From sequence record MW748999.1: a DNA stretch of 64,000 nt. One strand, written 5' to 3'. Shown here in pieces: positions 1,336-40,760 of this stretch; within the stretch, counting starts at the first letter, position 1, and the number at the start of each line of letters is the position of its first letter. This stretch comes from Escherichia phage vB_EcoM_Skers. The notes beneath the pieces were generated by a model. The model had not been told where the DNA came from and did not search any database. It saw only the letters and a list, made by a program, of their open reading frames with translations. Made by a program: the position numbers and the translations under genes.

Positions 1336-3444
1336 TTAAAATTTAACATTCTTAACCAGTTTCATAAAGTCTTGTGCGCGTTTGTCGTTATGCAGAATAC
1401 GATACCAGTTATCTACAATATCATACAGTAACGGGCTATTCTCTTTAAACTTCGCACAAACTGCTTTAATTCGTTCGTTTGCTGCCGTGAATTTTTCATC
1501 ACAAATCTTTTTAGTTTCTTCGTCCATAATCCAACGAGTATGAAGGAGTAACTTGGAAACCTCTTTATTATAATGACGACCGTACAGTCTGTCAATAAAT
1601 TCTGGAACACAGCGTTCTAGTTCATCGTCATGAAACAACATAGTGATCACACCCAGATATTCGCCATACCCCAGATGATTGGTCTTAACCTTCTTAGCCA
1701 GACCAGCCAGCTTACCGCAAACAAATTCTAGCGCACATTCCAATTGTTCGTCAACGAGATATTTTTGTGTCTCGTTTCGAGTAATAATATACTTTGTTAC
1801 CCCGAAGTAGTCAAGCGCCGTGTGTAATGTATTTTCACTATGGATCGATTTACGACTACGGCTTTCGAATGCATCACCTACGCGGAACATGTGCAAGCCT
1901 GATAACTCGCGAATCTCTGCCGCTTTCATGTGATGGCTGGTTTTATGCCAATTGTCACCAATCTTTTCCATAATATACACGTTAGGCAGCTTGGGAGTAG
2001 CTTCACGTTGTGTACGCTCGGTCTTTTCCGGTTTAACTGCTTTAGCACGCAGATCATCGGCCTCAGACACCTTAATCACGGTCATTTCAGAATCATCATA
2101 ATACTGTTTGATGTACTCGAAAGTCTCCATATGTTTTTCGTTGCGCTGACGGAACACAAGTACCTTTTTATTGATGCCGTATTCCTGGACCATACCGTTA
2201 AGAGTCAGTGCACGCAGTTTCGGTTTATCGGTATCATCAATAAGACACGTAATATCTTCTTTATGCATCCATACAAAATGCGTAATGTTGTATTGACTGC
2301 TAACGAAAGCAGGGCGCAATTTGCTGATCGTGTGTCGATGATGATACAGAGTATACACTTGACCTTCTACGTCATTAGGCGAATCTTTACCCGCATTCAC
2401 AAACTTATTATAGATTGCTACCGGATCGTCCCATTGTCCGATCTTACCCATCTTGCTAATAATATTGCGTTGAGTCGATGAATACTCGCTCATAAATTGC
2501 GCAAGTTTACGCTCTGTTTTAATGTTGGCGATCTTTTCTTTAACCTTTTCCAACATCATTTCATTGATTTCTGCAATGCGTTTTTCGATGTTCGCTTTAG
2601 TCTCAATTGACAAGTGAACTTCTTCACGCGATGGCATCAGGTCCAGATCACCCAACTCAAAATTAATGTAAATGGTCTGGTGCTGGCGGTTTACAGCTTC
2701 TAACCATGTTCCGCGAACATATTCATACGGGATCGGATACTGGATCTTACCCATGATTGCATATACTACATAGGAATCGTTATCACGCCCATTACAAACA
2801 TAATAATTATCAAAGCTAGGGAAATAATTAATTTCGATTGCATTGATATTAGGTTTGTGTTCCCCAAAATGACGAAGTACAAATTGTGCTTCTCGATGCC
2901 ATGTTTGAATGTCTTTTTCTTTCACCGGAATAGTGATTTTCAGACCATTGTCTTCATAGGTCGGTTCGTCGAAAATCTGCACCATTTTCGGCATAGAGTT
3001 TTGCACAAATGCAGTAAAGCCATAAGCGCGACCATTGTAGTAGTTTACGATTGTAAAGGTGTCGGTATAGCTATAAGCAGACTTCGCACCCAAACCAAAA
3101 GACCCGATATAGTCATTAGTCTGGTCTTTTGTTGATTCAAAGTAAACCGTAAACAGTTGTTCTAATTCTTTCTTAGACGGAATACCAGTACCATAATCAC
3201 GCACAGAAAAATACGGTTCGATTGCAGTCGGTAAATGAATATCAAACGGACGATCTAAGGTTCCGGCTTCTTTGTGAGTGTCGGTAGCATTGCACGAATA
3301 CTCACGGACGCAAGCGCGTTCACAATATTGATAAGTGTTCTTAGAAAGCACCATAAAAGCCTTGCTACTTGCTTTCAGTGAAAAATCAACCGCACCGCTC
3401 AAGTCACTGCCAAATACTTCTTCATTATCAATATGCATTTTCAT
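1336..3444 (-). CDS. rIIA: RIIA protein (GHKL/histidine-kinase-like ATPase fold)
   Basis: 702 aa; N-terminal GHKL-type ATPase-like region (DYGTGI, GSFGLGAKSAY); size and position upstream of rIIB as in T4; GAGGA SD before ATG at 3444. Confidence 0.8.
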   Translation of the reverse strand: MKMHIDNEEVFGSDLSGAVDFSLKASSKAFMVLSKNTYQYCERACVREYSCNATDTHKEAGTLDRPFDIHLPTAIEPYFSVRDYGTGIPSKKELEQLFTVYFESTKDQTNDYIGSFGLGAKSAYSYTDTFTIVNYYNGRAYGFTAFVQNSMPKMVQIFDEPTYEDNGLKITIPVKEKDIQTWHREAQFVLRHFGEHKPNINAIEINYFPSFDNYYVCNGRDNDSYVVYAIMGKIQYPIPYEYVRGTWLEAVNRQHQTIYINFELGDLDLMPSREEVHLSIETKANIEKRIAEINEMMLEKVKEKIANIKTERKLAQFMSEYSSTQRNIISKMGKIGQWDDPVAIYNKFVNAGKDSPNDVEGQVYTLYHHRHTISKLRPAFVSSQYNITHFVWMHKEDITCLIDDTDKPKLRALTLNGMVQEYGINKKVLVFRQRNEKHMETFEYIKQYYDDSEMTVIKVSEADDLRAKAVKPEKTERTQREATPKLPNVYIMEKIGDNWHKTSHHMKAAEIRELSGLHMFRVGDAFESRSRKSIHSENTLHTALDYFGVTKYIITRNETQKYLVDEQLECALEFVCGKLAGLAKKVKTNHLGYGEYLGVITMLFHDDELERCVPEFIDRLYGRHYNKEVSKLLLHTRWIMDEETKKICDEKFTAANERIKAVCAKFKENSPLLYDIVDNWYRILHNDKRAQDFMKLVKNVKF

Positions 3445-3458
3445 AATATAATCCTCAC

Positions 3459-3716
3459 TTAATTAAAATCTTCTTTGTCCATCTCTGCGTAAATTACATC
3501 CCACGCCCATAAATCAATAAACGCATTATATGTCACGGTGCAATCGTTGTCAATCACTTCTTTCGCATATTTCTTGATGTTTTCGTAGGAAACTTGCGGA
3601 TCAATTTTGTGTTTACGAAGATGCGCATATTCATACCTCAAACACTCCATAAACAGGTCCATCGATTTCTTTTCTCGATGACACTTGGCGATCATAAAAT
3701 CAAAACTTCGACTCAT
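3459..3716 (-). CDS. hypothetical protein (rIIA.1 position)
   Basis: 85-aa ORF in the minus-strand gene train; synteny only. Confidence 0.4.
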   Translation of the reverse strand: MSRSFDFMIAKCHREKKSMDLFMECLRYEYAHLRKHKIDPQVSYENIKKYAKEVIDNDCTVTYNAFIDLWAWDVIYAEMDKEDFN

Positions 3717-3726
3717 TTTCTACTCC

Positions 3727-3921
3727 TTATACATTTTCAATCACCCATTGCAGATGGGCTTCTGCGTCAACCAGTTCAGCGCGGCTTTTCTCTAAGCACT
3801 TGCTGTATTCTTTACGTTCCCACTCGGCAATTTCGTTTTTCAGGACTTCTTCATAGTAAGCAATTACGCCTTTCAGATCGGAAACTTTACGGCTTGCCAG
3901 TTCGATGTAATGGTTACGCAT
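3727..3921 (-). CDS. hypothetical small protein
   Basis: 64-aa minus-strand ORF, tight spacing with neighbours. Confidence 0.3.
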   Translation of the reverse strand: MRNHYIELASRKVSDLKGVIAYYEEVLKNEIAEWERKEYSKCLEKSRAELVDAEAHLQWVIENV

Positions 3922-4117
3922 TTTGATTCTCCTTTGTTACTAGATAACGAATTTGGTCTTGCATTGCAATCAGTTCCCAGCGTGCTACTTTCATCATAGA
4001 AACCGACTCTTTGAACATAATATTAGCTTTTTCCTTATCCCCTGTCAAGTAGATTTCTGCAATTTTTTCACAAAATTTTTGAGTTTCTTCATTCTTAAAC
4101 GGTTTCATATAAGTCAA
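3914..4117 (-). CDS. hypothetical small protein
   Basis: 67-aa minus-strand ORF overlapping neighbour by 8 nt. Confidence 0.3.
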   Translation of the reverse strand: MTYMKPFKNEETQKFCEKIAEIYLTGDKEKANIMFKESVSMMKVARWELIAMQDQIRYLVTKENQNA

Positions 4118-4174
4118 CCTTTTGTTTTCGATGGGGATATTATGATATATCCCCGATCCGGTGTCAACAGATTT

Positions 4175-4474
4175 TTAATCTTTTTTCAGTGCATCCATTA
4201 CTCGCTCTGCGATCAGTTCTCTTAAGCACTGATAACCATGATATTTGATGGCAATGTCACGCAGATCATTAACCAGTTCCCGTACTTCATGGTCTTTCAG
4301 ATCGTCTCTGTATTTCGATTTAATCGTATCTTTAGGTGGATTGCGGATAACCTGAAAACCTTGTTCTGCAATCACTGCGGCTTCTCGCTGGCGTTCATGC
4401 TGTACTGTATTTTTGATCAGGTCTGCTTCCATGAACTTTGCCACACTCATCATCATGTTATTCTTTTTGCTCAT
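4175..4474 (-). CDS. hypothetical protein (start at MSKKN, shorter than track ORF)
   Basis: GAGGA SD 7 nt upstream of ATG at 4474; track ORF 4175..4555 has an N-terminal extension running through the promoter. Confidence 0.4.
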   Translation of the reverse strand: MSKKNNMMMSVAKFMEADLIKNTVQHERQREAAVIAEQGFQVIRNPPKDTIKSKYRDDLKDHEVRELVNDLRDIAIKYHGYQCLRELIAERVMDALKKD

Positions 4475-4508
4475 CGTTAAATCCTCATAAAAGAAAAGGG
4501 AGACTCCC

Positions 4509-4536
4509 ATTATAGAGAATCTCCCTTGTATGTCAA
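4509..4536 (-). promoter_or_regulatory. sigma70-type early promoter (TTGACA-16-TATAAT) with flanking inverted repeat
   Basis: Reverse complement reads TTGACAtacaagggagattctcTATAAT; GGGAGA/TCTCCC arms bracket the -10. Confidence 0.45.
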
Positions 4537-4539
4537 GTG

Positions 4540-6363
4540 TTATGATTGCATCCAAATTTTGCGTTGATCTGCATCTTCACTATAGAGCAAATCGAATAGC
4601 TCTTTATAGTTTTCCGGTAACGTGATGATCTCCATTACAGGATCGTTGATCACGCGATGATAATCTGATTCTGTAAGCGATGCTAACCCTTTGATATATC
4701 GAATGTTGTAACCTTTGATATTATCTCGGTCGTTCTCGAAATCTTCTAGGTCATAATACCATCGAACATCATCACCTTTCTTTGGTTCCGCAATGATAAT
4801 AGGTGTTTTGATAAACCGGATTCGACCATCTTCGAACAATTCAGGCCAACGAGCAAAGAAAGAGATCAGACTAGGCTTAATAGACCCGATCCCGTCGGTA
4901 TCAGCGTCTGTCATAATCGCAATATTTTTGTATTGCATAACTTCCAATGCATCAACACCAAATTGCAAACCAGTGATCGCCATGATGTTAAAAATTTCAG
5001 CGTTCTTAACGATCTTTGCCTCCGGTTGTTCCCACGTTGTAAGAGTTTTGCCTCGCAACGGGAAACCGCCATGTAAATCTTGATCACGTACAGAGATCAG
5101 ATAGTTGATCGCGGAATCACCTTCCGTCAAAAACAGGGTAGTTTCTGCGTCAGTTCCAATAAGGTTAGCTTTAACGTGCTTTGCTACCTTAGCCCGTTTT
5201 GCTGCCTTTGCTGCCTTAGTCGCTGCCGCTTTATCTGCTGCCTCTTTGCGTGCCAGGACTACAGCAATAATAGGCATGATAATGTTTTCTTTCTTCGCAA
5301 TGACTTTAGCCAGCTTTTTAAAATCAAGATCAATATGACGCTTGATATCACCAGTCGGGTTAGTCAAGCGTTCTTTTGTCTGTGAATCAAAACGAAGGTT
5401 AGGCAATTCACGAACAATAAGAATACAGGTCAATCCAGATTTAACCGCAGCTTTAGTAACATCAACCTTATATTCTTTTTTGATTCGTTTTACAATCTCT
5501 TCACAAAGATCATCTGTCACATAATCAACGTGTGTTCCCCCGTTTTTGGTAAACAGACCGTTAGCAAAGGATACTGATTTAAAACCTTCTCCCTCGACCG
5601 CCGGAACGAGGGCAAGTGAAAAGTTTTTATCTTCAATGACAAACGGATCATCATTGTATAGTTTGGCATAATCCTTGAACTTGCTGGTTATCTTTTTGCC
5701 ATTAAACTTAAACGTGATCTTAGGAAAGATTACACTCAATGAATACATTCGATCGCAAATCACATCTGAAATTTCTTGTGACATGATCATACCTTCAAAA
5801 TGATCGAAATCGGGGCAGAACGTAACCTTAGTTCCTTTCAGTTTTGACGGCTTAGATGACCAGCTAATATTTTCTGCACCATTGGTACATTGAACGGTCA
5901 GTTCATTCTCTCCGTCACACGTCACACCAGTAAACCAGGACGAGAAAAATGATGTGAGCGCGCTTCCGATCCCATTCATACCCATAGTAACACGATTTGT
6001 ATCATCAAAGTTAGACCCTGCTTTAGCTCGTGTCCATGCAGCAACTGGTTGTGGAATCTGTTTCCCCTCTGGCGTCGTAACAATATGTTGCGGAATACCG
6101 CGACCATTATCTGTTACTGACACAATGTTATCTTTTATATCCACACTAATAACATTAGCGTACTCAAAATTAGTGCGGATCGCCTCGTCTACCGAGTTGT
6201 CGATGATCTCATCAATGATTTTAACCAGTCCAGGAACGTATGAAACTTTGGTCCATTTTCCAAATAGGAAACGATTGTGTGATTCATAAGTCGTTGACCC
6301 GATGTACATTGAAGGTCTCTTAAGACAGTGAGCGCGATCATCTAACAGCAAAAATTCAGACAT
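4540..6363 (-). CDS. 39: DNA topoisomerase II large subunit, unsplit (T4 gene 39 plus gene 60 equivalent in one ORF)
   Basis: 607 aa; N-terminus KRPSMYIGS..FGKW..YVPGLVKIIDEIIDNSVDEAIRT (GHKL ATPase) and C-terminal Toprim motif IAIMTDADTDG. Confidence 0.9.
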   Translation of the reverse strand: MSEFLLLDDRAHCLKRPSMYIGSTTYESHNRFLFGKWTKVSYVPGLVKIIDEIIDNSVDEAIRTNFEYANVISVDIKDNIVSVTDNGRGIPQHIVTTPEGKQIPQPVAAWTRAKAGSNFDDTNRVTMGMNGIGSALTSFFSSWFTGVTCDGENELTVQCTNGAENISWSSKPSKLKGTKVTFCPDFDHFEGMIMSQEISDVICDRMYSLSVIFPKITFKFNGKKITSKFKDYAKLYNDDPFVIEDKNFSLALVPAVEGEGFKSVSFANGLFTKNGGTHVDYVTDDLCEEIVKRIKKEYKVDVTKAAVKSGLTCILIVRELPNLRFDSQTKERLTNPTGDIKRHIDLDFKKLAKVIAKKENIIMPIIAVVLARKEAADKAAATKAAKAAKRAKVAKHVKANLIGTDAETTLFLTEGDSAINYLISVRDQDLHGGFPLRGKTLTTWEQPEAKIVKNAEIFNIMAITGLQFGVDALEVMQYKNIAIMTDADTDGIGSIKPSLISFFARWPELFEDGRIRFIKTPIIIAEPKKGDDVRWYYDLEDFENDRDNIKGYNIRYIKGLASLTESDYHRVINDPVMEIITLPENYKELFDLLYSEDADQRKIWMQS

Positions 6364-14243: not shown

Positions 14244-14879
14244 TCAATCGAATGTAGAAAGCAAATGTTTTGTTTCTTTCAGTTGTCGTTCAAGATCTTT
14301 GCGTTTCTCTTTAAGTTGCATTTTAGCATTATTTCGCTGTTTTTCAACATCTTTATCAATGCTCTTATTCCAGTTATCAATATCAGAATAAGTTGGCATA
14401 CCCAATTCTAGACCTAATGCGGTTGGATACAGGGTAACAGTCCATAAACCGCTAATCTTCTTAAATAGGTCGGGGTGTAGTGTACTATCTACATCTTCCG
14501 GTGTCAACTCTTTTTCTTCTTTCAGTGGTGGGATCTCGTCATATGGTTCCAGTGCATTTACTTTAATATCAGATACCTCATCAAAGAATCCGCGTACATC
14601 CGCAGGAAATACACAAGCAATTTCCCAACCGTGATCACGCAGAGAAGTAATATTTTTCACTCCCCCACCATGTGTGATGATTGATGTGACATTGCCATCA
14701 AGGTCCACCGAATTTACGAGAAATGGCTTATCGTCTGTCAGATCATTATAAAACTGTGCTTCGGCTGTAGTCATCTCCAGAAACAGATCTCGGATCGGAC
14801 GACCATCAGGTGCGTTACCTTCCTTGAGAGTATAAAAGCGACTTACGATCCATTTTGGCGGTAAAGCATTAGCGATCAT
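14244..14879 (-). CDS. hypothetical protein
   Basis: 211-aa minus-strand ORF downstream of gene 41. Confidence 0.45.
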   Translation of the reverse strand: MIANALPPKWIVSRFYTLKEGNAPDGRPIRDLFLEMTTAEAQFYNDLTDDKPFLVNSVDLDGNVTSIITHGGGVKNITSLRDHGWEIACVFPADVRGFFDEVSDIKVNALEPYDEIPPLKEEKELTPEDVDSTLHPDLFKKISGLWTVTLYPTALGLELGMPTYSDIDNWNKSIDKDVEKQRNNAKMQLKEKRKDLERQLKETKHLLSTFD

Positions 14880-29795: not shown

Positions 29796-31265
29796 CTATT
29801 CCCCATTACCATTATACTTTCTTTGTTTAGTTATCCACACTCTAACCATCTCTACTGATTCACCGTCAGACGGGTCAAGAGTTTTTCCCTTTTTCTTCAT
29901 GCGGTACTTAAATCCGTTAAATCTTGCATTCTCTTGTTCGTTAAAGTCGAACATCTTTTTAAATGATTTTCGCCCTTTACGCTCACCACATTCTAGCGGA
30001 ATCATTCGGTCTGTTATTACATTGGCATTAGGTAGAAACGTTTTTAGATAATCGACCAACGCCCAATCAGGAACATATAGATTAACATTCTCCTTGCTCT
30101 CGTTGTCTCTCAGGTTACAACGCAAACATAATTGAAATGCTGGTTCCAGATAATCAGACACATGACGCGCTTTCAAAAACTCGTTTGTTGGGAGATCGCA
30201 ACTATTAGCAAGACCTTTTAAAATATCAATCTCCCATCGTTGAGGGTTAAAGCTGAACATCACAGCAACATTTTTATGATGAATGTAAGAGTTAAGACCA
30301 TAAGATCCGTAAGGTATCCGCTCACCAATACCATTTGTACACGCTTCACGGTCCCGATTCACGGTATAAATGAAGTCATCGCCACATTCATTTTTAACCA
30401 TATCAACAAGACGTTCAAAGGTATTGTTTGTTTCTGACTGGTGACGAGACCATCGTTCGGAGTCCGTCATAAGGATGATGTTAACTCTATCTGTATTTTT
30501 ATACTCTTTGAAATATAGTCTGGATTCTAGCGCACTCGGAACAAAATCGCAATTTGCATAGTATCGTAGATACTTCCCACTATATGTATCAAAGAGATTT
30601 GCACATGCTATCGTAACCTTTTTAAAGTCTCCCCACGTACCGTGTTTGTTATCGTTCAAGAAAACAATTTTCGACCCATTCTTCCGGTGTCCTTCGTTAT
30701 GTTTTACCATAACGTTGATTTTCTTCTCTAATAACGCCTCATAAAGCCCTCTAAGAGAAGAATCGATCATATCAGTACCATCCTTTGCACTTTCTATCTT
30801 TTCTTTGATAGCGGCCTTCTCAGAGTCTTTTAGAACTAAGTTCTGTAGGCATTCCGATTCGTCGGCGATTGGTTCGCAATGCTTCGTGATAAGTTCAAGA
30901 TTAGACTTAAACGGATACTCATTAAATTCAACCAGTTGAGGAACTTCATCAATATAAAGAGCATATTCACTAAACATTTTTGAACGTTCCATATTAGATA
31001 ACGCTGTATGTGTGATGAATATCACATCAGCACCATCTTTAACTGATTGCATTATCGACGCTTGCACTGTCTTAAGGCTTCTTAGTCTGGTGCTATCAAT
31101 CAAGACAGCACGACCGCCCATTCTTTTAAACTTATTGTAAGATTGTTCACTTAAAACACGAGATGGCGAAGCAATAACCGCTTTTTCTTTTGTCTCTAGG
31201 ACGTGGGAAAGTATAGCATCCGTTTTCCCCGCCGCTGGCAATGCGATTAATGTTTCAATCTTCAT
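29796..31265 (-). CDS. P-loop NTPase-like protein of unknown function (489 aa)
   Basis: Deviant Walker A ALPAAGKT, Ia-like IASPSRVL, Walker B-like YIDEVPQ; no T4 counterpart recognised. Confidence 0.5.
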   Translation of the reverse strand: MKIETLIALPAAGKTDAILSHVLETKEKAVIASPSRVLSEQSYNKFKRMGGRAVLIDSTRLRSLKTVQASIMQSVKDGADVIFITHTALSNMERSKMFSEYALYIDEVPQLVEFNEYPFKSNLELITKHCEPIADESECLQNLVLKDSEKAAIKEKIESAKDGTDMIDSSLRGLYEALLEKKINVMVKHNEGHRKNGSKIVFLNDNKHGTWGDFKKVTIACANLFDTYSGKYLRYYANCDFVPSALESRLYFKEYKNTDRVNIILMTDSERWSRHQSETNNTFERLVDMVKNECGDDFIYTVNRDREACTNGIGERIPYGSYGLNSYIHHKNVAVMFSFNPQRWEIDILKGLANSCDLPTNEFLKARHVSDYLEPAFQLCLRCNLRDNESKENVNLYVPDWALVDYLKTFLPNANVITDRMIPLECGERKGRKSFKKMFDFNEQENARFNGFKYRMKKKGKTLDPSDGESVEMVRVWITKQRKYNGNGE

Positions 31266-31573: not shown

Positions 31574-31732
31574 TTACTTAATGATACTTACTTTACCAGA
31601 TCCGTGACAATGAGCACAACACCCATCACCACGCAATCCTGTTCCGTTACAGTGTTTACACTTCTTCAACGGTAAAGTCATTATAGCAAATAAAGCAATA
31701 ATGAACACCGAAACTAAATTCTCAATAATCAT
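31574..31732 (-). CDS. small membrane-anchored zinc-ribbon protein (52 aa)
   Basis: ORF MIIENLVSVFIIALFAIMTL...CKHCNGTG..CCAHCHGSG; not in track. Confidence 0.35.
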   Translation of the reverse strand: MIIENLVSVFIIALFAIMTLPLKKCKHCNGTGLRGDGCCAHCHGSGKVSIIK

Positions 31733-31991
31733 AAATCGCCCTCAGTTCTTTATAGCCTCCAATGTGCTCGTTGTCAATGAATATCTGGGGGTATACAAAC
31801 CGGAGGCTCTTTGAGTTCAGCCTCCCCGCCAGTTCTTCAATCATATCACGGTCGGGAATAATGTCAACCCCGACCTGCTTGAATACTGGTTTAAGTGTAT
31901 ACGGAATACCCAGATCATCCAGTAGCTTCATTGCACTAATACAACCATAACAATGATAAGCCTCTTTCGGTATACCGTATATCTCGATCAT
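31722..31991 (-). CDS. nrdH: glutaredoxin-like protein (NrdH-type redoxin)
   Basis: 89 aa; CYGC redox motif near N-terminus and C-terminal IGGY; position upstream of nrdG region. Confidence 0.6.
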   Translation of the reverse strand: MIEIYGIPKEAYHCYGCISAMKLLDDLGIPYTLKPVFKQVGVDIIPDRDMIEELAGRLNSKSLRFVYPQIFIDNEHIGGYKELRAIYDY

Positions 31992-32488
31992 TTCTCAGCC
32001 TTTAATCTTTCTAGTTCTTCTTCCAGTTCCTTGATCCGTTGGTCACGTTCAAAGTCACGCTGTATCTTAGTGGCGAATACTCGTTTAAACTGATTGTAAT
32101 CATCGATTTTAAACACTTCTTCTTCGCCATAGCGACGCACAGAAACTTCGTAGTTATTGAAGAATTGTTGCATCATTGCTTCGGATGATAGCTCTGCTGA
32201 TACCACTTTAAAATATTGATCTTCGGTAGGTGAAAACCAATTACAAGCATAAAGATAAACCTTTTCATTGTCTGGACACTGGTAAGCCTTACCATCGATT
32301 TCAATCACAGAAACATATTCAGGTATACTAGATGAATCAATAGCTAAGACTTTAAACGCACGGTCCCCGATAAACTCGGAGATCACACGATTCGCATCAC
32401 TGGTTGCAAATGCTTTACGCGCTTGTTCGTTTTTCCACTGATAGGTCATACCAACAACAAACATATTACCAACCTCGCTCTTTACCAA
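31988..32488 (-). CDS. repeat-domain/coiled-coil paralogue family member A1 (1 domain)
   Basis: GMTYQWKNEQARKAF...AFKVLAID...IEIDGKAYQ...YFKVV then coiled-coil tail; paralogous to 32466-34308 and 38123-40820. Confidence 0.55.
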   Translation of the reverse strand: MVKSEVGNMFVVGMTYQWKNEQARKAFATSDANRVISEFIGDRAFKVLAIDSSSIPEYVSVIEIDGKAYQCPDNEKVYLYACNWFSPTEDQYFKVVSAELSSEAMMQQFFNNYEVSVRRYGEEEVFKIDDYNQFKRVFATKIQRDFERDQRIKELEEELERLKAEK

Positions 32489-33290
32489 TCAAAAATTCAA
32501 CTTCACGACGTTTAATGTCTTCTTGAAGGTCTTTAATCTTCTGGCGATCTTGCATTATTTCATCCATCTTGTCAAGTGCCGCAATGAAATCATCGAAACG
32601 TTCAAAGGTTTTACCTTCATTTGCTTCGCCAAATTTAACCATTGTCAGGCCATAACGACTACTAAAAAGACGCTTCAACTGTCCAACGATCTTAGAATCA
32701 GTGGTTATAACTTCCAATTCTTCTACTTCTTGAAAGAATTTTCTATCAGAATCAATAAACCAGCTAGTTCCTTTATGGTCGCTATCTTCTGTTGCACTCA
32801 TTAGAGTATGGTCTTTACCATCAATTTCAATTACATTAACTTGCCCACATAGACTAACATTTTTAACAGTAAAAGGTCTATAATTTATTGCTCGTGCAAT
32901 AACATAATTAAGGTTAGATACGTTTTCAGCATAATGACAGAAGTCGGTCATAGCATTCGCATCTTTCCAAGTATAAGTTTTACCAACTTCCCATTTCTGG
33001 GGAACTTCTTCAACTTCACGAAAGAATTTTCGATCGAATGGACTAAAGAAATATGTTGCAGTCCAAATGTCTTTTCCTGTAGCAGTTTTCGCCGTATGAT
33101 AAACACCGTCTAGCTCTATTGCATTAATCCAACCGTTACCCTCGATCTCGATGATGGTAAATGGCTTGTCACCAATAGCTGCACTAATATCGCTGTTAAG
33201 TGGAGAAAGAACACCTTCTCCGTTAGTAATAAACTCAGTTTTAGCGTTTTCATCTTTCCAAGTGTAAGTTTTACCAATTTCCCATTTCAT
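32466..33290 (-). CDS. paralogue family member A2 (2 tandem domains + coiled-coil tail)
   Basis: Two internal copies beginning KWEIGKTYTWKDENA and KWEVGKTYTWKDANA, each ending RKFF.EVEE. Confidence 0.55.
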   Translation of the reverse strand: MKWEIGKTYTWKDENAKTEFITNGEGVLSPLNSDISAAIGDKPFTIIEIEGNGWINAIELDGVYHTAKTATGKDIWTATYFFSPFDRKFFREVEEVPQKWEVGKTYTWKDANAMTDFCHYAENVSNLNYVIARAINYRPFTVKNVSLCGQVNVIEIDGKDHTLMSATEDSDHKGTSWFIDSDRKFFQEVEELEVITTDSKIVGQLKRLFSSRYGLTMVKFGEANEGKTFERFDDFIAALDKMDEIMQDRQKIKDLQEDIKRREVEFLIGKERGW

Positions 33291-33302
33291 AATATATTCC
33301 CC

Positions 33303-33782
33303 TTAACCGATTTTATCAAGTTCGTTTAATGCTTTCTCTGCTTCCTGTATAGCTTGCACCCTTTCCGGCATTTTGTCAAGAAAATCTTTCAACTCTTCAA
33401 AACTGGAGATATGACGCAAGGCGTTAGCACCGATAGCTGCATGTGATTTGCATTCAAAGCGGATTTTATAATTATCCATAGCCAGCTTGAGTAGGTCCAT
33501 TAGTTTAGATTCTTCTGGAATACTAATTTCTTCAAATCTGCTACGGTCGTGATCCAGAAACCAACAATATAGACCTACATCGGTTGAACTCATATAAGTT
33601 CCATCATGAAGATATACAGATCGCACGTATCCTTTTTTCGCATCAACCGACGCAACTTTAAACGGTAATCGCAGATATTTCAAATAATCAACATCATACC
33701 ATTTAAAAAATTGGTTTGCATCTTTTACATCTTTCCATACATAGGTCTTACCAGCTTCCCATTTCATAATATCATCTCTCAT
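33303..33782 (-). CDS. paralogue family member A3
   Basis: KWEAGKTYVWKD...RSRFEEI then helical tail with FLDKMP motif. Confidence 0.55.
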   Translation of the reverse strand: MRDDIMKWEAGKTYVWKDVKDANQFFKWYDVDYLKYLRLPFKVASVDAKKGYVRSVYLHDGTYMSSTDVGLYCWFLDHDRSRFEEISIPEESKLMDLLKLAMDNYKIRFECKSHAAIGANALRHISSFEELKDFLDKMPERVQAIQEAEKALNELDKIG

Positions 33783-34308
33783 TTTTGATACGTGATTCTA
33801 ATTGGATCATACGGTCGCGCGTTTGTTTGTATTCTCGGATAGCACCGATCCGGCTAGGCATACCATCCAGTACGCTCTTAATACCTTCTAGGGTAGTAAT
33901 TTTGGCAATGCTATTATGTAACCCCATCTTATCGATCAACTGAATGTCGTAGGCTTCCATAAGCAGACCCAGGCGTTCTAAAGTTAGGTCTTCTTCTTTT
34001 TCTTCTGAATCTGGAATCTTAGGTTCAATAGTAACTTCGGTAAAGAAACGACGCTCACCCGACCAAAACCACACACCAGAACAACCAATAGGGGATTCTT
34101 TTAACGTCATAGAGTCGAAATCACTACCAATAATAGTAATTTCTCTAACATCACCATCATCGTCAAGGTCTTCTACCCTAAACGGGCGACCAGCCAACAA
34201 GTCAACAATACATCTGTTAATAAACGACGAAAATTTAGTCAGTTCGGCTTTCGACGCTTCGCATTCGATCTTGTAAGTTTTACCAACTTCCCATTCCATA
34301 ATAATCAC
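33772..34308 (-). CDS. paralogue family member A4
   Basis: EWEVGKTYKIE...RRFFTEV then helical tail VLDGMP... Confidence 0.55.
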   Translation of the reverse strand: MIIMEWEVGKTYKIECEASKAELTKFSSFINRCIVDLLAGRPFRVEDLDDDGDVREITIIGSDFDSMTLKESPIGCSGVWFWSGERRFFTEVTIEPKIPDSEEKEEDLTLERLGLLMEAYDIQLIDKMGLHNSIAKITTLEGIKSVLDGMPSRIGAIREYKQTRDRMIQLESRIKNER

Positions 34309-34309
34309 C

Positions 34310-34819
34310 TCAAATAATTTTCACTGGAATACTATTAACAATCTTGTATTGTACTTGATTGTCAGATCCCCGCCACGGCTTCTTCGTTGGCATATCTTTA
34401 ATATAACGCCCATCGATGAACATGTCAACTGATTCTACAATTTTTCTTTGCTCATCATTCAATTGGTCAAGGGTATAACCAGACCATAGCCAAATATCTT
34501 TATTTGGCATCCATGATTTTACTTCATCGATGATCCGCTGTACACCCTTTAAATTGCGTTTATACAATGGATCGCCACCTAAGAATGTTAGCCCCTGAAT
34601 AAAATCAGGTCTAAGCAGATCCAGAATCAATCCCATTGTATCATCGGTGAATGGTTCCCCGTTCTTAGGATTGAGTAGACTGGAATTAAAGCAACCATCA
34701 CATGCGTGTGAACATCCGGTAACGTAAAGGGAGACTCTCACTCCCTCACCGTTAACCATATCACAATCTTTAATATCGGCATAGCGTAGTTTGCCGTATG
34801 TATCAGAACTCATATTCAA
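34310..34819 (-). CDS. nrdG: anaerobic ribonucleotide reductase activating protein (radical SAM)
   Basis: CSHACDGC (Cx3Cx2C) radical-SAM cluster motif; 169 aa; adjacent to nrdD module. Confidence 0.85.
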   Translation of the reverse strand: MNMSSDTYGKLRYADIKDCDMVNGEGVRVSLYVTGCSHACDGCFNSSLLNPKNGEPFTDDTMGLILDLLRPDFIQGLTFLGGDPLYKRNLKGVQRIIDEVKSWMPNKDIWLWSGYTLDQLNDEQRKIVESVDMFIDGRYIKDMPTKKPWRGSDNQVQYKIVNSIPVKII

Positions 34820-35030
34820 TTACCCCGAACTCGTTTACAATCTGCGCTTTATAGTAACCACCGCGAGATGCTAATAGATAAGCTGGGCTTAGGTATTCGT
34901 ATTCACGGATTTCTACTTGTGCGTTTTCAGTTTCCCAAATCAGTAAAGTCCACATATTTGATTCTCCTGTAAAGTTGTATCTCGTCTTGATGAATATAGT
35001 ATAGGGGATCTCGCGATCCCCGTCAAGCAT
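34803..35030 (-). CDS. hypothetical small protein
   Basis: 75-aa minus-strand ORF. Confidence 0.3.
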   Translation of the reverse strand: MLDGDREIPYTIFIKTRYNFTGESNMWTLLIWETENAQVEIREYEYLSPAYLLASRGGYYKAQIVNEFGVIEYEF

Positions 35031-35564
35031 TTATTTTAAATTTTTTCGAATGTATTCAGACCATTCCTTCCCTGTCATTTCGGACCCATTCTGGAAACTG
35101 AAATATTCATACGGCATCGAGTCAAGATAAAACAGGATCATACATCGCGCCATATAATACCAATCACGATTAAAGTAAACTACGTTATCGCCAGTACCAT
35201 CAGCACCTTTATCATAACCATCGCGGGTACGGGCGACCCATTGAATGGTATCATTTTTCTCACGGATAGTAACAGGTTCCCAATATCCAGCACATCCAGC
35301 ATGACCACACGAACAAGTAAGGAAATATTGACCTTTTGCTTTGTTGTCATCCCATTCACGATGAATTGGTTCGATTTCGTGAAACAGTGCTAAGCAATCA
35401 TGATTATGCAACACTGGCTCACCATCAATCAATGCATGGAATGTATACAAACGACCCGTAGACAAATAGCTATCCTCACGCTCAACCAGTTCAATAGCAA
35501 TCTTTTTAGCTTGTTCTTTGTGTCGTTGTGCTTTACGTTTACGGTTTAATGATTTCATAGTCAC
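35031..35564 (-). CDS. hypothetical protein (Cys/His-rich)
   Basis: 177-aa ORF between nrdG and nrdD. Confidence 0.4.
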   Translation of the reverse strand: MTMKSLNRKRKAQRHKEQAKKIAIELVEREDSYLSTGRLYTFHALIDGEPVLHNHDCLALFHEIEPIHREWDDNKAKGQYFLTCSCGHAGCAGYWEPVTIREKNDTIQWVARTRDGYDKGADGTGDNVVYFNRDWYYMARCMILFYLDSMPYEYFSFQNGSEMTGKEWSEYIRKNLK

Positions 35565-35575
35565 CTCACATTATT

Positions 35576-36115
35576 TCAAAGATCGCGATATTGTACATTA
35601 TGAAAATGAGAACTTGCATTACCAATATTGTAGATAACAAATTCTTCATCCGGCGCTTGCGCTACAAATTGAGTATGAGCAACCGCTACGACTTTAAAAA
35701 TACGATCCGTGATCTTGTGTTTAATTTCGACTCCTACTTCCATAGGAACATATTCATGTGTTTCTGTTTCAGTCGCAAAACAGCCATCTTCTTCATAAGC
35801 ACGAACAAATCGATCGCAATCAGTACGCTTAACAAATTCAAGAGTATACAATTCTCGTGAATTGTCGGTATAGACCAATACAGAATTATTATGATAGCGA
35901 ATCACATACAGGTTATTATCATCGTCAATTACGCAAAAGCTACGGATTCCTTCGCCTTGACTCCAGCAGATATTAACCACCGTTCCTCTAATAAAAAAAC
36001 TTTCCTTTAAATTAAAACTAGTCAATGTGCTAGCGTGCATTTTAACAACAACACCATCGCCAATTTCCAGTTTACGAAGTTTAACTTCTTTGCTCAGTAC
36101 ACAAAACATCATCAT
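35576..36115 (-). CDS. hypothetical protein
   Basis: 179-aa ORF downstream of promoter cassette at 36144-36171. Confidence 0.4.
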   Translation of the reverse strand: MMMFCVLSKEVKLRKLEIGDGVVVKMHASTLTSFNLKESFFIRGTVVNICWSQGEGIRSFCVIDDDNNLYVIRYHNNSVLVYTDNSRELYTLEFVKRTDCDRFVRAYEEDGCFATETETHEYVPMEVGVEIKHKITDRIFKVVAVAHTQFVAQAPDEEFVIYNIGNASSHFHNVQYRDL

Positions 36116-36143: not shown

Positions 36144-36171
36144 CATTATACATTAGCTAATCAGGTTGTCA
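36144..36171 (-). promoter_or_regulatory. sigma70-type early promoter (TTGACA-16-TATAAT)
   Basis: Minus-strand TTGACA and TATAAT hexamers directly downstream of the nrdD terminator. Confidence 0.45.
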
Positions 36172-36176
36172 ACACC

Positions 36177-36209
36177 TAAAAACGAAAAAGCCGACCCTTT
36201 CGGATCGGC
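36177..36209 (-). terminator. rho-independent terminator after nrdD
   Basis: Hairpin AGCCGAtCCgaaaGGgTCGGCT followed by U-tract on the minus strand. Confidence 0.5.
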
Positions 36210-36215
36210 TGAAAA

Positions 36216-38122: not shown

Positions 38123-38617
38123 TTATTTTACCAGTTCTGCTAATTCTTTTTCTTTAGCTTCCAGTTCAGCTTTAAGCTGTTTAATCTCTTGTCGCTTCTT
38201 ATTAGCGGCTTCCTGCTTACTATTGCGGATAATCTGATCTAGATACAACTCCCAATCCTGAATATTTTTGATAATGTAGCCGTCAACATTAATTGGTCGG
38301 AGATTCAGTACAGCTTCCAGTTTAGTTGCAAAAACTTTAATTGCTGGTGTGAAGTATTCATACTCGTTATCTTCAAACCAATAACCTAGACTTGCATTAT
38401 CAATACGAAGACGAAGTTTAAGATCAAGGTCTTTATCGTCGGTGTAAAGATCTTTCACCTGACCCAGCGAACTAACAACAACTTTAAAACGAATTTTATC
38501 TACACCGCCAAAAACATCTTCAAGAATATCAGCAATTGAGCTATTAGCGCAAGATTGGTCGCTGAATGCGTCAAGGTTTTCTTTAGTTACAGTATACCAA
38601 ACATCTTGTACCCACAT
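38123..38617 (-). CDS. paralogue family member B1 (divergent domain + coiled-coil tail)
   Basis: 164 aa; WYTVTKENLDAF...IRFKVVV...; C-terminal EIKQLKAELEAKEKELAELVK coiled coil. Confidence 0.45.
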   Translation of the reverse strand: MWVQDVWYTVTKENLDAFSDQSCANSSIADILEDVFGGVDKIRFKVVVSSLGQVKDLYTDDKDLDLKLRLRIDNASLGYWFEDNEYEYFTPAIKVFATKLEAVLNLRPINVDGYIIKNIQDWELYLDQIIRNSKQEAANKKRQEIKQLKAELEAKEKELAELVK

Positions 38618-38647
38618 AATATAATCCTCTCGTTGTTAAGTGGGAGT

Positions 38648-38675
38648 ATTATAGCATACTCCCTTCGCATGTCAA
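38648..38675 (-). promoter_or_regulatory. promoter-hairpin cassette (TTGACA-16-TATAAT inside GGGAGTAT/ATACTCCC palindrome)
   Basis: -35 overlaps the stop codon of the upstream family gene. Confidence 0.45.
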
Positions 38676-39850
38676 GCACTAACTTTTTTCTTTACTGCTT
38701 TCACCTTCTGGCGAATTGCTCGAATCTCTTCGATCTCTTTTTCAGTCTCTTTAACAATTTCTTTGCGATTCTGAATATCTGTATCGAGATTATCATCAAG
38801 TTTAGGCAGCATGTCAATCAAGAACTTTTTAAAGTCTTTCAGGTTTCGAATAACAGCACCTTCGCCCATTACCGCAACACCCACACCATCCGGCAGATCA
38901 CCAAACAGCTTAACCAGTTCAGACAGATGATCATGATCTTCTAGTGCTTCTTCCGGTTCAGATGGCAGTTCAACAAAGTTATAACGTTCATCATTGCTGA
39001 TCAAGTGATACCAGCAAAGCCCGAAAGATTTCGGTGTATATTCTACACCATCAATTTCAACCGCGTCAACACTTCCATAATCATCTACTTTAGTTACCTT
39101 AAATCCTTGTCCCAGCTTTTGAACAATTTCAACAACATGACTTGATACAGTTTCAGCGGTAAACCAATATGGCAGATTATGCTGATTTGGCTTGTAGCGT
39201 TCACCGACTTTAAATCTCTGACCAGCAGCTTGCATAGCATGAAATTGTTGTTTCGTGATTTCCGCGAAGTATTCAAATTCGCTACAATCAAACACACAAG
39301 CCCATTGATCACAAAAACGATCTGCCTTAACAGTTTCACCTTTCGCGGTGATCATGGTAGCTGATCCGTGAGATTCTTCTTCAACTAAAAAGCCATATTC
39401 GACAAAATCAACAAGTTTCATGGCTTCTTTGTGCTCTGGATCATGCTCTCCCCAGAATCGCTTAAATTCTTGCAAACCTTCCGGGGTAAACGAATAGCAC
39501 TTACCTTTTTCAAAGTAAGTAGGCATTGCATCCTCTTTCTTGTTCATCGCTTCGTATGCCTCTTTTGAGATGCGTTTAAAGTATTTACGCTCATTGTTCA
39601 TAATCATAGTAGCCCAATAATCCACAATATCATTAGCGGAATAAACTACATCTCCAGCTTCAATAGTAATAACATGACCGTGGTCATCTTTTTCTAATAC
39701 TTTAAAGCCCTTTTCTACGATTTCAGCAACCCGAATATGACCACGGCGCGAAGCATCGGTCAGAATAATTGAATAGCGAGAAAAGTCTAGAAACTCATCT
39801 TTACCGCCTTCACGGAATGCATAGTAATGACCTTCAAAGAATTTAGCCAT
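38672..39850 (-). CDS. paralogue family member B2 (3 tandem domains + coiled-coil tail)
   Basis: 392 aa; three copies starting GHYYAFREG, GKCYSFTPEG, GERYKPNQ, each with GFKV and YF.x(I/L) elements; ends in coiled coil. Confidence 0.55.
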   Translation of the reverse strand: MAKFFEGHYYAFREGGKDEFLDFSRYSIILTDASRRGHIRVAEIVEKGFKVLEKDDHGHVITIEAGDVVYSANDIVDYWATMIMNNERKYFKRISKEAYEAMNKKEDAMPTYFEKGKCYSFTPEGLQEFKRFWGEHDPEHKEAMKLVDFVEYGFLVEEESHGSATMITAKGETVKADRFCDQWACVFDCSEFEYFAEITKQQFHAMQAAGQRFKVGERYKPNQHNLPYWFTAETVSSHVVEIVQKLGQGFKVTKVDDYGSVDAVEIDGVEYTPKSFGLCWYHLISNDERYNFVELPSEPEEALEDHDHLSELVKLFGDLPDGVGVAVMGEGAVIRNLKDFKKFLIDMLPKLDDNLDTDIQNRKEIVKETEKEIEEIRAIRQKVKAVKKKVSA

Positions 39851-39881
39851 AATATAATCCTCTCGTTGTTTAGATGGGAGT

Positions 39882-39910
39882 ATCTTACTACTCCCGTTTC
39901 ATCATGTCAA
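39882..39910 (-). promoter_or_regulatory. promoter-hairpin cassette (TTGACA-17-TAAGAT, GGGAGTA/TACTCCC palindrome)
   Basis: Same architecture as 38648-38675. Confidence 0.4.
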
Positions 39911-40491
39911 GCGTTAAATGACTTTTGGATCTCTTTCAGTTCAGCTACTTTATCGGCGCTATATTTTGCTTGATGTTCCATGCGCTTAAGCTCACCTTTG
40001 ATATAGGTTTCTAGCTTAGGTTTATTCTCAATCAGAAAATCTTTCAAGTCATCGGCATTTTTAAAGTATAGCTGATTATCAAAGCTAAAATCTTCCAGCG
40101 TCAATGATACCAAAGAAGACTTCGCAAACAAGTTAATCAGATCTTCCAGAGATTCTTCTTTCTTAACTGGTTTCATTTCTTCAAACTGCTTTTTAGTGAT
40201 GCGTTTAAAGTATTTGCGCTCGCTTGCATCAATCATGATTGACGCACCCTCATAATCATGAGTTTCTACCAAATACACTTTACCCATAACATTAACCGTA
40301 AGAACTTTAAAGCCCCTGTGAAGCACACCATACAGGAACTTGTTATGTTGTGGATAGCGTTTAACAAATTCCTCTGCGGACTCAGCATTACGGAAAGTGT
40401 AATAACGACCTCGTTCAAAAACAGCATCATTTGAAGACTTAGCCGGATACAATTTATACGTTTTCTGTACCATAGTATAATCCTCTATCAT
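39907..40491 (-). CDS. paralogue family member B3
   Basis: 194 aa; GRYYTFRNAESAEEF...GFKVLTV...ERKYFKRITK; tail LKDFLIENKP + coiled coil. Confidence 0.55.
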   Translation of the reverse strand: MIEDYTMVQKTYKLYPAKSSNDAVFERGRYYTFRNAESAEEFVKRYPQHNKFLYGVLHRGFKVLTVNVMGKVYLVETHDYEGASIMIDASERKYFKRITKKQFEEMKPVKKEESLEDLINLFAKSSLVSLTLEDFSFDNQLYFKNADDLKDFLIENKPKLETYIKGELKRMEHQAKYSADKVAELKEIQKSFNA

Positions 40492-40760
40492 TTCACTAAT
40501 TGAACAGCACGAAACAGAATGCGGTCACACGGAAGCAGCATAAATTCCCAACGCGGATCAAAGTCTTTAGCGGTGTATGTTTTCCCGTCAACCGAGATTT
40601 CACTTACATAACCAATGGGTGACACTTTAAGAACAGTAAATCCATTCTTGATGACTTCGTAGGTATCTTTCAAACCTTCGTAGTCATCCTCTAAGAAGTC
40701 TTTACGTGCTTGCTCAGATTTAAAAACATAGGCAACACCGGATTTAAACATCTTACGCAT
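40488..40760 (-). CDS. paralogue family member B4 (single domain, no tail); start at MRKMFKSG
   Basis: GVAYVFKSEQARKDF...GFTVLKV...ISVDGKTYT...RILFRAV; AGGAGAA SD; track ORF extends falsely to 40820. Confidence 0.5.
   Translation of the reverse strand: MRKMFKSGVAYVFKSEQARKDFLEDDYEGLKDTYEVIKNGFTVLKVSPIGYVSEISVDGKTYTAKDFDPRWEFMLLPCDRILFRAVQLVK

Follow-up and report, generated by a model that had tools for sequence, protein, structure and literature searches.

What occupies the interval between the glutaredoxin gene nrdH and the anaerobic ribonucleotide reductase activase gene nrdG in Escherichia phage vB_EcoM_Skers, and what might the phage gain from it? The DNA analysed here, referred to as the window, comprises 64,000 nucleotides of this phage (record MW748999.1) and is a segment of a Krischvirus (Straboviridae) genome. 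The nrdH-nrdG interval is filled by four co-oriented open reading frames (ORFs) on the minus strand, which are packed end to end, carry five copies of a module of about 90 amino acids (aa) and are described in existing annotation only as 'hypothetical'. It can be stated with high confidence, as regards both identity and architecture, that this array is a Krischvirus-specific tandem expansion of the GoF/Frd.2 family known from phage T4, and the annotation of the four genes is thereby corrected in about 58 genomes.

The gene array and its flanks

The array is termed array A and its genes gA1 to gA4; the module of about 90 aa is called the head, and the two heads of gA2 are A2a and A2b. The genes, with their flanks, are as follows.

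31722..31991, minus strand: nrdH glutaredoxin, downstream flank (Pfam Glutaredoxin, phrog_22, RB49 annotation)
31988..32464, minus strand: gA1, 158 aa from ATG 32464, orthologue of RB49p048, phrog_5347 at 2.8e-60; head 32189-32464, tail 31991-32188
32466..33290, minus strand: gA2, 274 aa, orthologue of RB49p049, two heads; A2a 33000-33290, A2b 32700-32999, tail 32469-32699
33303..33767, minus strand: gA3, 154 aa from ATG 33767, orthologue of RB49p050, phrog_5347 at 9e-59; head 33504-33767, tail 33306-33503
33772..34299, minus strand: gA4, 175 aa, orthologue of RB49p051, phrog_5347 at 7e-66; head aa 1-90 (34030-34299), linker aa 91-104 (33988-34029), tail aa 105-175 (33775-33987)
34310..34819, minus strand: nrdG, anaerobic ribonucleotide reductase activase, upstream flank (Fer4_12 at 2.4e-43; phrog_626, small subunit)

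The stop codon of gA1 overlaps the start of nrdH (ATGA). The likely starts of gA4 (ATG 34299, Shine-Dalgarno sequence GAGGTG) and gA1 (ATG 32464, Shine-Dalgarno sequence GAGG) match the RB49 annotation, and the longer reading frames previously proposed, from GTG 34308 and TTG 32488, are disfavoured by both the Shine-Dalgarno positions and that annotation. For gA3 an alternative upstream ATG is possible at 33782.

An earlier reading of this DNA, made from the sequence alone and referred to here as the original prediction, had described a repeat array of four genes and five copies, and this is borne out by all-against-all alignment. With the 438 six-frame ORFs of the window as database, phmmer searches between the array-A genes gave E values from 1e-7 down to 1e-10, and in Smith-Waterman comparisons all ten pairs of the five copies scored above 200 shuffles, with z ranging from 4.2 (A1-A3) to 42.5 (A2a-A2b). 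Pairwise identity among the five heads is 26-50%. Y9, F40 and F86 are invariant in the alignment and F20, V42 and G49 are conserved at 90% or more; the head motifs picked out earlier coincide with conserved columns, namely the tyrosine in GKTY, the phenylalanine and valine in PF.V and the phenylalanine in FF.EV. The tail motif proposed at the same time, L.DFL..MP, is clear in gA3 (LKDFLDKMP), gA4 (IKSVLDGMP), gA2 (IAALDKMD) and two proteins of a second array described below, but weak in gA1. A hidden Markov model (HMM) built from the five array-A copies alone finds both heads of gA2 as separate domain matches (5.8e-41 and 4.6e-45) and retrieves seven more copies, so that the window holds 12 copies in nine genes and not the 11 first counted: five in array A, six within 38123-40760 and a single one at 14244-14879. 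The view that the genes are true paralogues, each built as a head followed by a helical tail, is supported.

Relationship to T4 GoF and Frd.2

No characterised domain had been recognised in the module, and a confident match to a T4 family had been regarded as speaking against the original prediction. There is such a match, insofar as GoF is a named and genetically studied T4 protein: a homologue of the module is found in the N-terminal domain of T4 GoF and, at a weaker level, in Frd.2, members of a family that has been described (PMC12152347). The T4 set searched consisted of 536 six-frame ORFs from 74 kb of T4 (62 kb plus the hand-entered Frd.2 protein). The five-copy HMM gave T4 GoF as its sole significant match in this set (26.8 bits, E 1.6e-7); Frd.2 was not significant with the same profile (E 0.22), and a window-wide profile matched GoF at 5.8e-11 and Frd.2 at 0.0014. 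For MotB.1, which predicted structures place alongside GoF and Frd.2, no significant sequence link was found (E 0.56-0.67); it lies in the separate phrog_2333, with no cross-match.

The PHROG matches run in both directions. All four array-A proteins match phrog_5347, to which no function is assigned there (9e-59 to 1e-91), and show weaker matches to several PHROGs labelled 'goF mRNA metabolism modulator'. T4 GoF and Frd.2 are both placed in phrog_622, which gA1-gA4 match at 3e-4 to 1.6e-18, and T4 GoF in turn matches the phrog_5347 of the array at 6.5e-7. Given these reciprocal profile and PHROG matches, homology to GoF is established from both directions. Among 1.84 billion representative proteins the 12-copy profile retrieves just 81 clusters, including the GoF orthologue P0088 (E 8.8e-6). 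Nearly all are 90-390 aa long and carry between one and three copies; a further six, of about 800-5,100 aa, match through short repeated stretches only and look spurious.

Other searches were negative or added little. Pfam gave no credible match for any array protein, only low-scoring coiled-coil noise, and the array-A and array-B proteins were unlisted for Pfam FRD2 (PF03197, gathering threshold 29 bits) even at E<=1, a model against which T4 Frd.2 scores 133 bits. Sequence searches of the PDB with head and tail profiles returned nothing below E 0.07, and an alignment-seeded word-index protein search added orthologues only.

Predicted structure

The head was modelled with AlphaFold2 from a 32-sequence alignment (mean predicted local distance difference test score, pLDDT, 89.4; predicted template modelling score 0.79). 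The model runs from strand b1 through two helices, b2, b3, b4 and a short helix to b5, and describes a bent five-stranded SH3-like barrel whose nearest solved structures are of the FeoA type, which is the fold expected of the family. GoF and Frd.2, as well as MotB.1, have been grouped from predicted structures as a phage 'LSm-like fold' family, with the FeoA/SloR/IdeR group of SH3-like proteins closest (PMC12152347). A Foldseek search of BFVD with the head gave 49 matches at E<=0.001, all of them uncharacterised proteins of T4-like or other large myoviruses, with template modelling scores mostly of 0.6-0.85 for the non-orthologous ones. Membership of the FeoA family itself, judged by sequence (Pfam FeoA) together with genomic linkage to feoB, finds no backing. 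Nor do the heads belong with LSm/Hfq by the measures applied, namely a structural similarity to Sm/Hfq domains at least as high in rank as that to other small barrels, together with ring oligomerisation.

The full-length model of gA4 has a pLDDT of 73.7, falling below 50 in the linker (residues 93-105), which is rich in Glu and Asp. Its tail is predicted to form a helix (105-117), two strands (121-124 and 131-134) and a 38-residue helix (137-174), the last being long, charge-rich and amphipathic. In the model gA4 has the flexible linker that marks the family, followed by a C-terminal domain of the sort that differs from one family member to another. The heads are acidic, with isoelectric points of 4.5-4.9 and net charges of -4.5 to -7.5, apart from gA3, which is near neutral.

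Distribution and comparison with the T4 locus

Across 31700-34900 the window shows 98.3-98.6% identity to phages such as RB49, TB34 and kaaroe. Matches were obtained in 58 records, all RB49-like, and in 56 of these the alignment covered 80% or more of the interval. The gA2 protein is 100% identical to one of vB_EcoM_G2248, and a tblastn search with it found the 58 Krischvirus records together with one weak match in a Yersinia phage. In the five Krischvirus loci that were compared gene by gene all four array genes are intact.

In T4 the order is nrdH, 55.8, nrdG, mobC, nrdD, 49, and no family member is found there. The statement that nrdH directly adjoins nrdG in T4 was therefore inexact, the small gene 55.8 lying between them, but the lineage-specific expansion that it was meant to illustrate holds, in that T4 carries just 55.8 at this position and gA2 is virtually confined to Krischvirus. 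T4 goF lies between 39.2 and cef, next to gene 39 and with motB.1 nearby, whereas in RB49 genes 39 and 39.2 are followed directly by dexA, so that this site lacks goF, cef, motB and motB.1. In the RB49 sequence NC_005066, the stretch 3205-5971, which corresponds to the beginning of the window, has none of the T4 block goF-cef-motB-motB.1-motB.2 between 39.2 and dexA.

No description of the Krischvirus arrays was found in the literature searched, and PMC12152347 makes no mention of RB49, of paralogues or of a tandem arrangement. What is new is a subfamily confined to Krischvirus, together with the lack of goF and motB.1 at their T4 position in RB49, the contrast between strongly conserved tails and deeply divergent heads, and the presence, absence or replacement of one head according to strain (both taken up below). 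The finding is one of additional members, with a distinctive tail and multi-head forms, of the known GoF/Frd.2 family.

Divergence of heads and tails

The almost identical starts of several heads had been taken to imply recent duplication. This was ruled out by the synonymous sites: even the closest pair, A2a and A2b, is only 49-50% identical and its synonymous sites are saturated (proportion of synonymous differences 0.75). The KWE.GKTY.WKD start is a motif of about 14 codons that is similar in DNA also (37 of 42 nt between A2a and A2b), as is a 30-nt stretch at the end of the domain (87% identical between the same two heads). The near-identical starts are a matter of motif conservation and not of a young copy. 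These conserved start and end stretches could serve as short recombination substrates for the gain, loss and swapping of heads. The head starts also form a family of 69-nt DNA repeats (33227-33295, 32936-33004, 33704-33772 and 34236-34304) that are 67-74% identical, with a core near 90%.

Rates of non-synonymous (dN) and synonymous (dS) substitution were compared for the window, RB49, the metagenomic Krischvirus contig L005 and UPWr_E1, with JK32 left out. The ranges below are those between diverged lineages, the window and RB49 being near-identical throughout (heads 95-100%, dS <=0.08).

Tails: aa identity 85-100%, dN <=0.065, dS 0.14-0.73, dN/dS <=0.13
Heads: aa identity 44-72%, dN 0.16-0.55, dS 0.5-2.3, dN/dS 0.2-0.5
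Flanking nrdG: aa identity 97-99%, dN <=0.013, dS 0.16-0.25, dN/dS <=0.08

Heads differ between strains as much as they do between paralogues, whereas tails are nearly invariant; the gA3 tail is 98-100% identical across the four genomes, and across 36 orthologue clusters gA4 has a column entropy averaging 0.59 bits for the head against 0.10 for the tail. Purifying selection on the tails is clear and rules out junk. In the heads the fold-defining residues are kept and variation falls elsewhere. A2b is missing in L005, E26 and ELT4; in UPWr_E1 its place is taken by an allele of 45% identity, whereas A2a there keeps 93% identity. Exchange of heads between paralogous loci is not indicated, since the nearest relative of every head is its positional counterpart in other strains. 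The overall pattern suggests that specificity resides in the head and that the tail is a common functional anchor.

Other family members and neighbouring genes

A second array (array B) lies between nrdD and gene 49, which abut in T4, and there is one solitary member.

38123..40760, minus strand: array B; matches to the array-A profile at E 8e-12, 6e-5, 1.5e-9 and 3e-4
38123-38617, minus strand: array-B gene with one head
38672-39850, minus strand: array-B gene, 392 aa, three heads
39907-40491, minus strand: array-B gene with one head
40488-40760, minus strand: array-B gene, head only, 90 aa
14244..14879, minus strand: Dc2 (RB49p021), solitary member, 211 aa, one head plus helical tail; array-A profile E 4.8e-7

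In RefSeq the array-B proteins RB49p058 and p059 are labelled 'goF mRNA metabolism modulator', p058 having originally been named 'frd.2', and array B also matches phrog_8944 'goF'. For Dc2 there is a Foldseek match to Dc2 of phage ECD7. It lies immediately downstream of the helicase gene 41, the gene whose mRNA level T4 GoF(D25Y) restores, which may be coincidence. A search for further members in RB49 (HMM over 1-89 kb; PHROGs for ten larger early ORFs of 114-164 kb) gave only marginal matches (E 0.006-0.09) and no GoF-type PHROG, and the ORF adjoining frd in RB49 (p239) had no family match.

A consensus scan for expression signals picked out one site for array A.

34400..34428, minus strand: candidate sigma-70-type promoter for array A, TTGACA-17-TATATT, 11 of 12 consensus positions

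Located some 100 nt upstream of gA4, within the 3' end of nrdG, this site would represent a possible early promoter for the array. On the array-B side there are sites with all 12 consensus positions (TTGACA-16-TATAAT) at 36145-36172 and 38648-38675 on the minus strand, preceding the genes at 35576-36115 and 38123-38617 respectively. A strong terminator-like hairpin (36189-36210) is present just after nrdD. The T4-type late-promoter motif TATAAATA does not occur within 31-42 kb, and the genes are on the strand and in the region of pre-replicative genes.

Several neighbouring genes may be recorded here. On the minus strand, 31574-31732 is a 52-aa ORF (RB49p046) with a hydrophobic N-terminus and a zinc-ribbon-like CxxC...CxxC motif that overlaps the end of nrdH, and 29796-31265, between gene 55 and the nrdH cluster, encodes a 489-aa protein annotated as hypothetical (RB49p044), whose orthologue in L005 has a weak precomputed Pfam match to DEAD helicases; T4 has small 55.x genes there. 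Between nrdG and nrdD (34803-36115, minus strand), where T4 has the homing endonuclease gene mobC, are three conserved genes without assigned function, belonging to DUF7170 (a 75-aa ORF, 50 aa annotated), phrog_8242 (177 aa) and phrog_14838 (179 aa).

Possible function and alternative explanations

GoF is an abundant early protein that runs partly as a dimer, and the family is dispensable in the laboratory. The only activity demonstrated for the family is that of the mutant GoF(D25Y), which acts post-transcriptionally, raising the half-life of a reporter mRNA and stabilising gene 41 mRNA (PMC12152347, where the original, decades-old goF/comC-alpha genetics are cited). The overall explanation that we regard as best, and on balance as probable, is that array A is an expansion of the GoF/Frd.2 family whose products act as early adaptors. 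As to mechanism, it can be suggested rather tentatively that the Krischvirus proteins are early, non-essential adaptors combining a variable binding head with a constant tail. The array proteins would be abundant and individually dispensable, the constant tail would mediate self-association or docking to one shared partner, and the fast-diverging acidic head would recognise a strain-variable ligand in the host transcription or RNA-handling machinery, a host protein being likelier than RNA. Binding by the head would shift the fate of phage transcripts after transcription, and the many paralogues, with their two- and three-head proteins, would widen the range of ligands.

A number of observations weigh against this proposal. 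In the reporter assay the wild-type forms of GoF and MotB.1 did little, and knocking out single genes gave no phenotype, so that the link to RNA rests on a gain-of-function mutant, and the acidity of the heads disfavours direct RNA binding and favours protein ligands. Self-association of the tails is something we infer; the tails are modelled at a pLDDT of 49-80, and in a crude heptad count hydrophobic residues occupy only about half of the a/d positions. The evidence for the promoter is a consensus match, and early timing is no more than suggestive. Head dN/dS of 0.2-0.5 does not demonstrate positive selection, and head dS is near saturation and partly alignment-dependent.

It may be asked whether the same variability might reflect an arms race with the defences of E. 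coli, the heads being decoys or inhibitors of variable host immune or restriction proteins held in an oligomer by the tails. Hypervariable heads on constant tails, with A2b present, absent or replaced, are what would be expected of such binders; acidic heads and linkers are found in many phage mimic and inhibitor proteins, the arrays occupy accessory gene islands that differ between T4 and RB49, and the T4 family members are individually non-essential. However, head dN/dS is below 1, no anti-defence protein is known within the family (no search of PADLOC or anti-defence libraries was made with these proteins), and such functional data as exist for the family relate only to mRNA level; we consider a counter-defence role rather unlikely. 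That the heads are true LSm/Hfq-like RNA chaperones, forming rings and binding RNA directly, as the label 'LSm-like fold' would imply, seems improbable. Each head does have five beta elements in the model, the N-terminal domain of GoF counts Hfq among its structural neighbours and GoF(D25Y) stabilises an mRNA (PMC12152347), but the heads are acidic, and they have two helices between b1 and b2 instead of the N-terminal helix of most LSm-fold proteins (a helix that is not strictly required). Moreover, neither a dimer nor a hexamer of GoF or MotB.1 was predicted with confidence by AlphaFold3, and the effect of wild-type GoF was not strong (PMC12152347).

The position of the array among nrdH, nrdG and nrdD, taken with a best structural match to the iron-transport protein FeoA, might suggest accessory factors of the anaerobic ribonucleotide reductase. 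This is very improbable: members elsewhere are not linked to nrd genes (T4 goF is beside gene 39, frd.2 beside frd and gene 32, Dc2 beside gene 41), T4 keeps its nrd genes without arrays, and the columns that are invariant or nearly so hold hydrophobic residues or glycine, a conserved His or Cys ligand being absent. Least credible of all is the idea that these are decaying, functionless duplicates or ORF artefacts. It could draw on the 'hypothetical' annotation throughout, the rapid divergence of the heads and the dispensability of one head in some strains, but the genes are intact in all five loci and the interval is preserved in nearly all records, the tails have dN/dS of 0-0.13 despite non-zero dS, the core fold residues are conserved, and Shine-Dalgarno sequences and stop/start packing are present.

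The preferred reading of the array as an expansion of early adaptors can be taken further, into territory that we think unlikely though worth stating. The nine genes would constitute a modular 'binder library' in which the twelve heads are interchangeable specificity cassettes and the constant tail plugs into a shared assembly or partner; as part of this same speculation, deeply diverged head alleles would persist among Krischvirus phages as a population and be reshuffled through recombination at the conserved motifs of about 30 nt with which the domains start and end. If true, this would be a phage-encoded, population-level diversification of host-factor recognition operating inside the cell.

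Comparison with known systems

T4 GoF (comC-alpha, 141 aa, early) has the same N-terminal domain of about 90 aa as the array proteins, with the start K-F/W-E-V-x-K-x-Y, the PF.V strand and the FF.EV end, and it resembles them further in the acidic EEQEQEEKEQEQ linker that follows the head, in a predicted SH3-like barrel with FeoA as nearest solved relative and in its setting as an early accessory gene. It differs in that its C-terminal part is a short beta-alpha unit, unlike the helix-hairpin-long-helix tail of array A, and in being a single gene with a single head beside gene 39, whereas array A consists of tandem genes with one or two heads. D25 and G84 of GoF, at which mutations suppress the rho phenotype, are at positions not conserved in the array copies. 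T4 Frd.2 shares phrog_622 with GoF and is matched by the window-wide profile, but array A itself falls outside Pfam FRD2. T4 MotB.1 is grouped with GoF and Frd.2 by predicted structure (PMC12152347) and its gene is absent from the RB49 locus. Also among the nearest known systems are FeoA and the C-terminal SH3-like domains of IdeR and SloR, and small beta-barrels of the Tudor/KOW type (the C-terminal domain of PcrA/UvrD, CarD and EF-P domain I). Hfq and the LSm proteins are likewise small bent five-stranded barrels, and an analogy with them has been proposed and tied to the RNA phenotype of GoF(D25Y) (PMC12152347).

T4 has just three divergent and individually dispensable members, and the RB49-type phages, with nine genes and twelve heads in three clusters, are a natural experiment in which E26, ELT4 and UPWr_E1 provide ready-made head-swap and head-deletion variants for finding the binding target of the family. 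The swapping of adhesin cassettes in the tail fibres of T-even phages is analogous to the library of heads suggested above, but such a library would act within the cell.

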